Virus record (IMG/VR): IMGVR_UViG_2648501466_000024
Strand: one strand, 5' to 3'
Source: a virus
Lineage: Duplodnaviria > Heunggongvirae > Uroviricota > Caudoviricetes
DNA: 4,482 nucleotides
Made by a program: the position numbers and the translations under genes. Below are positions 2,569 through 4,482 of the stretch, piece after piece (positions within the stretch are counted from its first letter, which is position 1; each line of letters opens with the position of its first letter). The notes under the pieces were generated by a model. That model was not told the origin of the DNA and ran no database searches. It saw only the letters and a program-made list of their open reading frames with translations.

Positions 2569-3312
2569 ATGACACAGACTGAATCAGCGATTCTGGCGCA
2601 TGCCCGGCGGTGTGTGCCTGCGGAGTCGTGCGGCTTCGTGGTGAGAACGCCGGAGGGGGAGCGGTATATCCCTTGTGTGAATATCTCTGCAGAGCCGGAG
2701 GCGTATTTTCGTATTGCACCGGAAGACTGGCTGCGGGCAGAGATGCAGGGGGAGATTGTGGCACTGGTCCACAGTCATCCCGGTGGTCTGCCCTGGCTGA
2801 GCGAGGCCGACCGGCGGCTGCAGATAAAAAGTGCACTGTCCTGGTGGCTGGTCTGCCGGGGGGAAATTCATAAATTCCGCTGTGTGCCACATCTGACAGG
2901 ACGGCGCTTTGAGCACGGGGTGACGGACTGTTACACGCTGTTCCGGGATGCCTACCATCTGGCGGGAATTGATATGCCGGATTTTGAGCGTGAGGATGAC
3001 TGGTGGCGCAACGGTCAGAACCTGTACCTGGACAATATGGAGGCGACTGGTTTTTACAGGATTTCCCTGCCTTCCGCACAGCCTGGCGATATCCTGCTGT
3101 GCTGCTTTGGCGCATCGGTGGCCAATCATGCCGCCATATACTGCGGCAACGGTGAGCTGCTTCACCATCTGCCTGAACAACTGAGTAAACGGGAGAGGTA
3201 TTCCGAAAAATGGCAACGACGAACGCATTCAGCCTGGCGTCACCGCCACTGGCACGTATCTGCCTTCACGGGGATTTACAACGATTTGGCCGCCGCCTCA
3301 GCCTGTATGTGA
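2569..3312 (+). CDS. K: Tail tip assembly protein K, two-domain JAB/MPN (JAMM) plus NlpC/P60-like
   Basis: 247-aa reading from ATG 2569 (10 nt after the L stop) to TGA 3310-3312. Contains an exact H-x-H-x7-S-x2-D JAMM motif (HSHPGGLPWLSEAD, nt 2770-2811) and a downstream Cys/His region (GVTDCYTLF with Cys at 2929-2931; NHAAIYCG; LLHH) consistent with an NlpC/P60 papain-like fold. Start is uncertain: ATG 2569 has no clear Shine-Dalgarno sequence, while the in-frame ATG at 2743 would give 189 aa. Confidence 0.85.
   Translation: MTQTESAILAHARRCVPAESCGFVVRTPEGERYIPCVNISAEPEAYFRIAPEDWLRAEMQGEIVALVHSHPGGLPWLSEADRRLQIKSALSWWLVCRGEIHKFRCVPHLTGRRFEHGVTDCYTLFRDAYHLAGIDMPDFEREDDWWRNGQNLYLDNMEATGFYRISLPSAQPGDILLCCFGASVANHAAIYCGNGELLHHLPEQLSKRERYSEKWQRRTHSAWRHRHWHVSAFTGIYNDLAAASACM
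2770..2811 (+). other. JAMM metalloprotease signature within K
   Basis: HSHPGGLPWLSEAD fits H-x-H-x(7)-S-x(2)-D exactly. Candidate upstream Glu residues (e.g. E19, E29/E31 of the long K form) are only present if K starts at 2569. Confidence 0.7.
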
Positions 3313-3890
3313 ACACGGCAGCGGAAGCCATCCGTGCCCTGTCGATGCAGATGCCGGGATTCCGCCGTCAGATGAACGAAGGCTGGTACCAGATACGTAT
3401 TCGCGGTGAGGACACGGCACCGGAGGCGGTGTACGCCCGTCTTCACGAACAACTGGGTGAGGGAACGGTCATCCACATTGTGCCGCGACTGGCCGGGGCC
3501 GGAAAGGGTGGACTGCAGATTGTGCTGGGGGCGGCAGCCATCGTGGGCTCTTTCTTCACTGCCGGGGCATCAATGGCGTTATGGGGTTCAGCCCTGGCAG
3601 CCGGTGGTTTTTCTGCCACCACGATGCTGTTTTCACTGGGGGCCAGCATGATACTGGGCGGTGTGGCCCAGATGCTGGCCCCGAAGGCAAAGACGCCGGA
3701 GTACAAAAGTACGGATAACGGTAAACAGAACACGTATTTTTCGTCACTGGACAACATGATTGCCCAGGGGAACCCGATGCCGGTGCCTTACGGTGAAATG
3801 CTGGTTGGCTCCCGGCGAATCTCCCAGGACATCAGCACCCGTGATGAAGGTGGTGGCGGGAAGGTGGTGGTTATCGGGCGGCAGGGGTAA
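3210..3890 (+). CDS. I: Tail tip assembly protein I
   Basis: 226-aa ORF with gpI-like motifs ARICLHGDLQRFGRR, VIHIVPRLAGA, a Gly/Ala-rich hydrophobic segment, and KQNTYFSSLDNMIAQGN / YGEMLVGSR. Strong Shine-Dalgarno sequence GGGAGAGG (3191-3198) 11 nt upstream of ATG 3210. The first 103 nt overlap the 3' end of K in a different frame, as in lambda. Confidence 0.92.
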   Translation: MATTNAFSLASPPLARICLHGDLQRFGRRLSLYVNTAAEAIRALSMQMPGFRRQMNEGWYQIRIRGEDTAPEAVYARLHEQLGEGTVIHIVPRLAGAGKGGLQIVLGAAAIVGSFFTAGASMALWGSALAAGGFSATTMLFSLGASMILGGVAQMLAPKAKTPEYKSTDNGKQNTYFSSLDNMIAQGNPMPVPYGEMLVGSRRISQDISTRDEGGGGKVVVIGRQG

Positions 3891-3896
3891 AAAGAA

Positions 3897-3930
3897 TAAA
3901 AAAATCCCGCAGAGTTGCGGAGCTGCGGGA
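3897..3930 (-). terminator. Terminator-like hairpin with T-tract on the minus strand, just downstream of the I stop
   Basis: 8-bp inverted repeat TCCCGCAG (3905-3912) / CTGCGGGA (3923-3930) with a 10-nt loop. On the + strand it is preceded by an A-run (3897-3904, within AAAAAGAATAAAAAAA), so on the minus strand the hairpin is followed by a T-run. On the + strand there is no U-tract after the stem. Confidence 0.45.
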
Positions 3931-4060
3931 AGAGATACAAAGATTAACTATAGAGAATTATTCTTATGTCACGACAAAAAAATTAACGCAGAGAAATTAT
4001 TAGCGCCACAGTCAGTTTGTGAAAATGTGAAGATATTCAGAATTTTTATTCAGTGATGAT

Positions 4061-4094
4061 ACAGGCATCCTCCGGGATGCCTGTTGTTTTTGTG
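4061..4094 (+). terminator. Rho-independent terminator-like hairpin (+ strand) between I and J
   Basis: Perfect 10-bp inverted repeat ACAGGCATCC (4061-4070) / GGATGCCTGT (4075-4084) with 4-nt loop TCCG, followed directly by TGTTTTTGTG (4085-4094). Lies 33 nt upstream of the J start codon. Confidence 0.6.
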
Positions 4095-4126
4095 CGTGAA
4101 CAGTTATCACAGTAAAGGGTGAGACA

Positions 4127-4482
4127 ATGGGCAAAGGTGGCGGCAAGGCGCACACGCCGGTAGAGGCAAAGGACAATCTTAAGTCCACGCAGATGATGAG
4201 CGTGATTGACGCCATTGGTGAAGGGCCGATTGAAGGTCCGGTGAAGGGACTGCAGAGTATTCTGGTGAACAAAACCCCGCTGACGGACACGGACGGCAAT
4301 CCTGTGATACACGGCGTGACCGCGGTCTGGCGCGCCGGGGAGCAGGAGCAGACACCACCCGAAGGCTTTGAGTCCTCCGGCTCTGAAACCGGACTGGGCG
4401 TGGAAGTGACGAAGGCAAAGCCGGTAACGCGCACCATTACATCCGCGAACATTGACCGCCTGCGGGTCACCTTCGGGGTGCA
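4127..4482 (+). CDS. J: Host specificity / tail tip central fibre protein J, N-terminal 118 codons (3'-truncated by window edge)
   Basis: Translation MGKGGGKAHTPVEAKDNLKSTQMMSVIDAIGEGPIEGPV...TITSANIDRLRVTFGV is a clear match to the lambda gpJ N-terminus as I recall it. Shine-Dalgarno sequence AAGGGTGAG (4115-4123) precedes ATG 4127. The ORF is open to the window end. Confidence 0.95.
   Translation, partial: MGKGGGKAHTPVEAKDNLKSTQMMSVIDAIGEGPIEGPVKGLQSILVNKTPLTDTDGNPVIHGVTAVWRAGEQEQTPPEGFESSGSETGLGVEVTKAKPVTRTITSANIDRLRVTFGV

Follow-up and report, generated by a model that had tools for sequence, protein, structure and literature searches.

The DNA analysed here, a stretch of 4,482 nt of a tailed phage that we call the window, carries a hairpin followed by a T-rich tract between two genes of a tail operon. 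This raises the question of what a terminator-like element does inside an operon, and whether it belongs to the tail genes themselves or to DNA that was inserted between them. The window has the gene order of a lambda-type tail, namely the C-terminus of H followed by M, L, K, I and J, according to Pfam and RefSeq annotation; the Q gene is not within it. An identical spacer is found in Escherichia coli CAU16175 (NZ_CP047378), where the gene directly upstream is annotated as 'tail assembly protein'. The earlier note had named the gene downstream of the hairpin as J, and Pfam and the RefSeq annotation of the identical spacer agree on that identity as well as on that of I. The 236 nt between I and J (3891-4126, the I-J spacer) have a GC content of 36-41%, vs 55-65% for the flanking genes. 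The features of this region are the following:

3309-3890, plus strand: tail assembly gene I, the stop codon of which ends at 3890 (Pfam Lambda_tail_I, E 3.6e-9)
3898-3974, minus strand (3974->3898): putative PasB-type small-RNA gene, convergent with the tail operon (mapped PasB ends, alignment)
3898-3921, minus strand: predicted intrinsic terminator of the PasB-type RNA, with a hairpin at 3921-3906 and then a U7 run to 3898 (scan)
3996-4023, minus strand: sigma-70 promoter-like site of the PasB-type RNA (scan, 10/12 matches, the best in the window)
4026-4041, no strand assigned: predicted CRP-like palindrome, TGTGA-N6-TCAGA, next to the PasB-type promoter on its upstream side
4061-4084, plus strand: pre-J hairpin, with a 10-bp perfect stem and a UCCG tetraloop (direct reading, scan, folding)
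4085-4094, plus strand: T-rich tail of the pre-J hairpin, TGTTTTTGTG (direct reading, scan)
4115-4129, plus strand: J ribosome-binding region (AAGGGTGAG) and the ATG at 4127 (sequence reading; the J start is annotated in the identical copy)
4127-4482, plus strand: 5' part of tail tip gene J (Pfam FNIII-A_GpJ; RefSeq annotation gpJ)

The stem of the pre-J hairpin is formed by ACAGGCATCC (4061-4070) and GGATGCCTGT (4075-4084), which make 10 perfect pairs, six of them G-C, on either side of a TCCG loop (4071-4074; UCCG in the RNA). The tail begins at the first base past the stem and contains seven T in 10 positions, five of them consecutive. Given that the T-run is interrupted by a single G after the first U (UGUUUUUGUG), the efficiency of this terminator could be partial. 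The hairpin ends 42 nt ahead of the J ATG (4127-4129), and the end of the tail at 4094 lies 33 nt before it. Direct reading and the scan thus bear out the stem, loop, T-tract and distance to J described in the earlier note, which had also proposed a folding calculation as a check. The predicted free energy is -19.3 kcal/mol, compared with -8.6 +/- 2.6 kcal/mol for 200 dinucleotide shuffles (z -4.09), and none of these shuffles (0/200) was as stable. A loose scan of the whole window for terminator-like sites gave only a mild enrichment (8 found vs 3.8 +/- 2.4 expected), and the pre-J hairpin ranks top among the eight. A second terminator-like hairpin lies within the coding sequence of gene M, on the plus strand at 1721-1750 (GGCATGGT-GGTT-ACCGTGCC then TTTTTGTGGC). 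A longer structure joining 4053-4061 to 4104-4111 was also considered and dropped, as it is absent from variants with other J leaders.

The pre-J hairpin thus combines the hallmarks of intrinsic terminators, i.e. a GC-rich stem in the range of ~5-14 bp with a short loop, a 3' U-rich tract, excess stability and conservation. By every sequence criterion it would be ordinary in kind, a Rho-independent terminator. It is not located at the end of a transcription unit, as it sits between I and J inside the tail operon. However, a mid-operon position is normal for operons transcribed by antiterminated polymerase and does not exclude it from this class.

Absent from the earlier note are the presence of equivalent hairpins at nearly all I-J junctions and that of a small-RNA gene on the minus strand of the spacer. 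The latter resembles PasB of enteropathogenic E. coli (EPEC) E2348/69, an 83-nt RNA encoded on the minus strand (1466343->1466261) between E2348C_1436 and E2348C_1437 (Pearl Mizrahi et al. 2021, table S6) and described as embedded in a phage structural-gene operon (Zhu, Shabalina and Storz, bioRxiv 2026). In the RefSeq record of E2348/69, the tail assembly protein gene ends at 1466255 and gpJ starts at 1466496; these are the two genes that flank PasB. The published PasB ends align to window positions 3974->3898, and the 3' end coincides with the end of the U-run at 3898. The terminator found in the scan consists of TCCGCAACTCTGCGGG followed by ATTTTTTTAT, and the Northern probe used for PasB (AATCCCGCAGTGATCGCGGAGCT) is similar to window positions 3905-3926. 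The two RNAs are identical at 60 of 85 aligned columns (about 71%), the terminator and a UUAAUCUU core being kept and the 5' part having diverged. These comparisons place the window gene in the published PasB family, as a divergent member. Together with its promoter-like site and terminator (3898-4023), it takes up the two thirds of the spacer nearest to I. As its 5' part is different, its targets may differ from those of PasB.

The promoter-like site of this gene comprises a -35 element TTCACA (4023-4018), a 16-nt spacer and a -10 element AATAAT (4001-3996), which is TATAAT in E2348/69, and the promoter region is nearly invariant among copies. The published 5' end of PasB is approximate; the promoter-like site predicts a start 15 nt further upstream. 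The 5' end of the PasB-type RNA may be nearer 3989 if the predicted promoter is used. The CRP-like palindrome (TGTGAAGATATTCAGA) is the single match in the window, with one mismatch, where 0.10 is expected by chance. Its half-sites are retained across copies and the 6-nt spacer between them is variable. Its centre is ~44 nt from the predicted start of the PasB-type RNA, a distance that is not canonical. Published RNA-seq of EPEC gives a strongly lower PasB level under the 'activating' condition (log2 change -6.8). Such a drop would fit catabolite control. The 'activating' medium is presumably glucose-rich DMEM. Window positions 4003-4060 are more conserved than the body of the PasB-type gene, and the PasB promoter and CRP-like site explain the conservation of 4003-4049. 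Rfam searches returned no meaningful score for the window, the E2348/69 locus, three spacers of the enterohaemorrhagic strain (EHEC) Sakai and a spacer of the class B described below; PasB is without an Rfam model.

Counterparts of this RNA appear to be known in EHEC as well. EcOnc22, EcOnc23 and EcOnc24 of strain Sakai are RNAs of about 85 nt on Northern blots that are destabilized without Hfq (Tree et al. 2014). Their genes, in prophages Sp15, Sp14 and Sp11, respectively, run opposite to the late operon (Tree et al. 2014), and all three fall in I-J spacers. In the current Sakai record, the EcOnc22-24 peaks seem to match the pre-J hairpin on its antisense strand, 22-84 nt from the J start. 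This match is only apparent, an artefact of the record version. The coordinates of the Tree laboratory refer to NC_002695.1, and those of NC_002695.2 are about 136-146 nt higher between 1.27 and 2.93 Mb, as determined with three landmarks (AgvB1 located by Rfam, stx2B plus the stated 282 bp and, within Sp15, the tR' of StxS1). Once corrected, the Hfq peaks cover the body of the PasB-type RNA, in the I-proximal half of the spacer and on the opposite strand, and not the hairpin. The EcOnc and StxS coordinates of Tree et al. (2014) and Sy et al. (2020) are thus misleading if read against the current Sakai record. The Sakai equivalents of the predicted termination zone (about 4088-4094), on the minus strand, which is that of the late operon, are about 2902733-2902741 (Sp15), 2676664-2676672 (Sp14) and 2166714-2166722 (Sp11) in NC_002695.2, where the equivalents of the hairpin end roughly 138 higher than in NC_002695.1. 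The anti-sRNAs AgvB and AsxR were considered as a further lead and set aside, as they sit at the PR' moron site and not between I and J.

Location, strand and size, together with the corrected coordinates, make it probable that EcOnc22-24 represent the PasB family in EHEC, an equivalence that the source papers do not state. The small-RNA family next to the hairpin is therefore one already known (PasB, probably EcOnc22-24), of which the window appears to hold a divergent variant: the genes share the I-J spacer, the antisense orientation, the terminator sequence and a similar length. PasB-family members bind Hfq in EPEC, and probably in EHEC. An Hfq-dependent RNA of about 83-85 nt in the lysogen has been published for homologues of the window gene only.

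We then asked whether the pre-J hairpin and the PasB-type gene form one unit. An exact-match scan of viral contigs with window positions 4019-4042, in the PasB promoter region, yielded 120 stretches, which together with loci collected earlier make 123 anchor copies of two classes. In the 60 class A copies, the promoter region continues into a CAGGCAYCC...GGRTGCCTG hairpin and T-run. None of the 60 lacks this hairpin family and its T-run, so the pre-J hairpin must be more than a chance occurrence. Beyond the T-run, three unrelated J leaders are found, each after the same TGCCTGTTGTTTT, and homology among class A spacers with different J leaders stops just past the T-run. In class B (63/123 copies), I, PasB and the promoter region are kept up to about window position 4049, and about 190 nt of unrelated sequence take the place of 4050-4126. 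This sequence harbours another hairpin, AAAGAAAACCCCGGUAUC-UGCU-GAUACCGGGGUUUCUCUUU (dG -32, z -6.6), about 105 nt before J. Thus, PasB and the pre-J hairpin are separable modules, since class B breaks at ~4049, upstream of the hairpin. We found no convincing ORF and no Rfam match in the right half of class B. Its hairpin, very stable and located between A-rich and T-rich runs, has a bidirectional look (locus L071, 7133-7320).

An alignment of the pre-J hairpin over 14 variants of the window family has 98.6% of its cells paired. The sole compensatory pair is pair 7 (C-G / U-G / U-A), and 13 of 500 shuffles do as well; within-family covariation is thus weak taken alone.

To compare I-J junctions irrespective of PasB, we assembled a collection by querying with the I protein, to which lambda was added. 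A search of genome contigs supplied distant relatives; it gave 13 loci, several of which represent E. coli contamination in unrelated assemblies. A terminator-like hairpin was defined, for this analysis, as a stem of at least six pairs including at least four G-C, with a loop of 3-8 nt and at least five T in eight positions. Such hairpins are present on the sense strand in the last 130 nt before J in 89 of 96 junctions, which are distinct sequences rather than independent lineages and come mostly from Enterobacteriaceae prophages and close relatives of two I proteins. The antisense strand of the same regions has them in 20/96 cases, shuffled spacers in 8/1920 and coding windows of the same loci in 26/1293. 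The pre-J hairpins surveyed amount to 35 sequences and, when grouped by eye, about 11 stem types. Most have UNCG-type loops with U-runs directly after the stem, which is typical of intrinsic terminators.

In prophages of Escherichia ruysiae, Enterobacter, Rahnella and Pantoea, whose I proteins are 35-63% identical to that of the window, the stems are unrelated (GGUGC/GCACC, CCCGCC/GGCGGG, GCCACC/GGUGGC and others) and are followed by U5-U7 and the J ribosome-binding region. Examples are AAAGGUGC-UUCG-GCACCUUU + U7 in Enterobacter and AGCCACC-UCCG-GGUGGCU + U7 in Pantoea. The hairpin structure thus exists, is unusually stable and is held in position across very divergent phages with different stems, which supports the view that the element is under selection. 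Because an equivalent hairpin is found at nearly all I-J junctions, including that of lambda, it would be an ancestral feature of the junction and not a peculiarity of this locus.

The I-J gap also accommodates other cargo than PasB, including sodC and an insert of 625-631 nt with a short ORF. The lambda-type hairpin is retained 23 nt before J at a junction with a 722-nt insert after I, and at those with the 625-631-nt inserts the hairpin is 16 nt before J. The sodC-insert class, with four junction sequences, is the only one without a pre-J hairpin; the hairpin is therefore dispensable in some prophages. The I-J spacer of that class is 851 nt long (L151, 1783-2630; also L152, L156, L161, L164 and L140), and the insert, which cuts the PasB-type gene at its promoter, encodes on the minus strand a Cu,Zn superoxide dismutase-like protein, recognized as SodC-like by eye from its translation. 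The spacers of 625-631 nt belong to Enterobacter-type tail modules (L137, L138, L237, L250 and others). Their insert, which is different and also placed after I, has a short ORF in the sense direction, the start of which (MKKYGLVLFGVLFISGCAP...) resembles a signal peptide, and after it a hairpin and T-run of its own.

The hairpin of lambda itself (NC_001416, about 15465-15492) is AAACCGCC-UGCG-GGCGGUUU followed by UGUCAUUU, and it lies 22 nt before the J ATG. It has the same position and strand as that of the window, a GC stem, a UNCG-type loop and a T-rich tail. In contrast, the stems are unrelated (AACCGCC in lambda, CAGGCAUCC in the window), and the lambda spacer is only 60 nt long and without a small-RNA gene, whereas that of the window has 236 nt. 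Our scan misses the lambda hairpin, probably because a G-U extension of the stem consumes the T-run. The hairpin is kept in all 21 distinct sequences of lambda-type junctions, the spacers of which are 56-85 nt long. As the stem is conserved in sequence, these junctions provide positional support and no covariation support. In the literature searched, we found no description or test of the lambda I-J hairpin. The E-Fi, J-lom and lom-stf gaps of lambda (7163-7180, 18920-18935 and 19612-19633) each have a sense hairpin with a T-run. The pre-J hairpin of lambda is thus one of a set of intergenic hairpins in the late operon.

With respect to other known systems, the pre-J hairpin is comparable to tR' and tL2a, which are intrinsic terminators within long operons dependent on Q or N antitermination. 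However, those have been mapped experimentally, and their short products, 6S/StxS and LPR1/PreS, respectively, bind Hfq, whereas the hairpin of the window is known from its sequence. The PasB-type cassette, for its part, is reminiscent of morons, which are promoter-gene-terminator cassettes inserted in lambdoid late operons, a description credited to Juhala et al. (2000). The segment 3891-4049 is extra, AT-rich DNA of deviating GC content with its own predicted promoter and terminator. Its cargo differs from that of morons, being a non-coding RNA whose transcription runs opposite to that of the operon. The pre-J hairpin does not appear to be part of this moron-like cassette, as junctions devoid of PasB and those of class B contradict such a membership.

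We favour the idea, somewhat better than an even bet in our judgement, that lambda-like tail operons have an ancestral intercistronic intrinsic (Rho-independent) terminator at their I-J junction and that 4061-4094 is the copy of it in the window, its activity being predicted from its features. Four alternatives have to be weighed against it. The one that we take most seriously, although it is unlikely, is that the hairpin acts inside the full-length late mRNA and that termination is incidental. It might be a barrier to 3'-to-5' exonucleases that stabilizes the upstream tail-gene segment, or the structure and the U-rich tract might leave the ribosome-binding site of J accessible and free of coupling to I. 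This would agree with the compact junctions, in which the hairpin ends 16-26 nt before the J start, with the U-run abutting the conserved Shine-Dalgarno region of J (UUUUUUUAUGGGUGAAAUAUG), and with the persistence of the hairpin beside J despite DNA inserted after I. The hairpin is also conserved in lytically growing phages, though Q-modified polymerase is expected to ignore it, and the similar hairpin that lambda has right after its highly expressed capsid gene E fits a stabilizer. However, neither a stabilizer nor an insulator of the ribosome-binding site needs the full terminator signature, including 7-U runs. The spacing to that site is also loose, with 42 nt in the window and about 105 nt in class B, and the genes upstream of the I-J junction presumably encode low-copy proteins, for which stabilization would have no obvious purpose. 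A quite improbable alternative is that the hairpin belongs to the PasB cassette, having come with the small-RNA gene as its J-side boundary, insulating J from transcription of the cassette, for example from divergent initiation at the PasB promoter. Its sequence is indeed unrelated to the lambda type, every class A copy has it together with the PasB promoter region, spacers with differing J leaders cease to be homologous right past its T-run, and the whole spacer is poor in GC relative to its flanks. Nevertheless, junctions that never had PasB show equivalent hairpins in the same position, and class B combines PasB and its promoter with a completely different right segment.

The earlier note had offered two regulatory readings of the element, as a terminator that insulates J unless antitermination takes place or as the 3' end of a short transcript arising in the spacer. 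The former finds support in the terminator features, their location on the coding strand within the tail operon and the signs of selection; the latter found no support in the data examined. A discrete plus-strand small RNA that ends at the hairpin in the lysogen, with a start either in the spacer (near 4007, diverging from the PasB promoter) or still further 5', in which case it would be antisense to PasB, is in our opinion very doubtful. The A/U-rich stretch, hairpin and U-tail do look like the 3' module of an Hfq-binding sRNA, terminators of antiterminated operons are known to yield such RNAs (StxS, and lambda LPR1/PreS at tL2a), and 4003-4060 is conserved above the PasB body. However, the PasB promoter and CRP-like site account for most of that stretch, up to 4049, and an RNA of the StxS/PreS type would be expected to have a sense promoter nearby and a sense-strand Hfq signal. 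No plus-strand promoter-like site of at least 9/12 matches is present in the spacer, the best by eye having 8/12. The EPEC RIL-seq entries listed include none for the plus strand of the spacer, and all peaks that the EHEC Hfq-CRAC list places in the three I-J spacers of Sakai are antisense, with none on the late strand. In addition, PasB-less junctions have the hairpin and no room for such an RNA. That the hairpin is merely a chance palindrome or a DNA-level recombination scar devoid of RNA function is hardly credible. Mosaic boundaries coincide with it and its covariation within the family is weak, but the survey revealed a marked strand asymmetry, with the T-run always on the 3' side. Moreover, many unrelated stems with UNCG-type loops occupy the same position, and such hairpins are rare in shuffles and coding controls.

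What would an ancestral terminator do at this place? In lambdoid phages, late transcription depends on antitermination by Q at tR', and the polymerase that transcribes the late operon carries the Q modification and passes terminators. The element could thus stop only polymerase that lacks this modification, in lysogens or ahead of Q synthesis. Under these conditions, the pre-J hairpin would shield J and the genes after it from leaky or spurious sense transcription, for which the AT-rich PasB cassette directly upstream could plausibly be a source. During lytic growth, Q-modified polymerase would read through. We consider this restriction to unmodified polymerase the most reasonable interpretation, resting on the established features of lambdoid late transcription. 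The PasB-type cassette, made of terminator, gene and promoter (about 3891-4049), would have been inserted between the stop codon of I and a pre-existing hairpin. In line with an ancestral terminator, the hairpin stays beside J when PasB, 722-nt or 625-631-nt DNA enters after I, and class B has swapped it for an unrelated and stronger one, still upstream of J. Against the terminator reading stand the near silence of I and J in EPEC lysogens (base means of 4.8 and 15), the weak covariation within the family, the interrupted T-run and the sodC junctions devoid of a hairpin.

An extension that joins both elements of the spacer is speculative, and we give it little chance of being right. The I-J terminator would then, besides marking a landing site for cassette swaps, set where a stable anti-PasB RNA ends, and this RNA would titrate the small RNA. 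A non-antiterminated sense transcript ending at the pre-J hairpin would carry the full complement of the PasB-type RNA, and an increase in late or leaky transcription would thereby turn off regulation by PasB. The near-universal I-J terminator would let lambdoid phages exchange PasB, sodC and other cassettes with J expression undisturbed.

To return to the ancestral terminator, our analysis gives a corrected anatomy of the spacer, in which the notable feature is the PasB-type regulatory RNA gene on the other strand, and the plus-strand hairpin is older and shared with lambda. It adds a near-universal pre-J terminator and cassettes that insert between I and this terminator, a pattern of which we found no description in the literature searched. 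According to the survey, a terminator-type hairpin before J is among the most constant non-coding features of lambda-like tail operons. This raises the question of why phages whose late transcription ignores terminators retain one ahead of J, and it offers a simple rule for annotating such prophages and for locating cargo at the I-J site.
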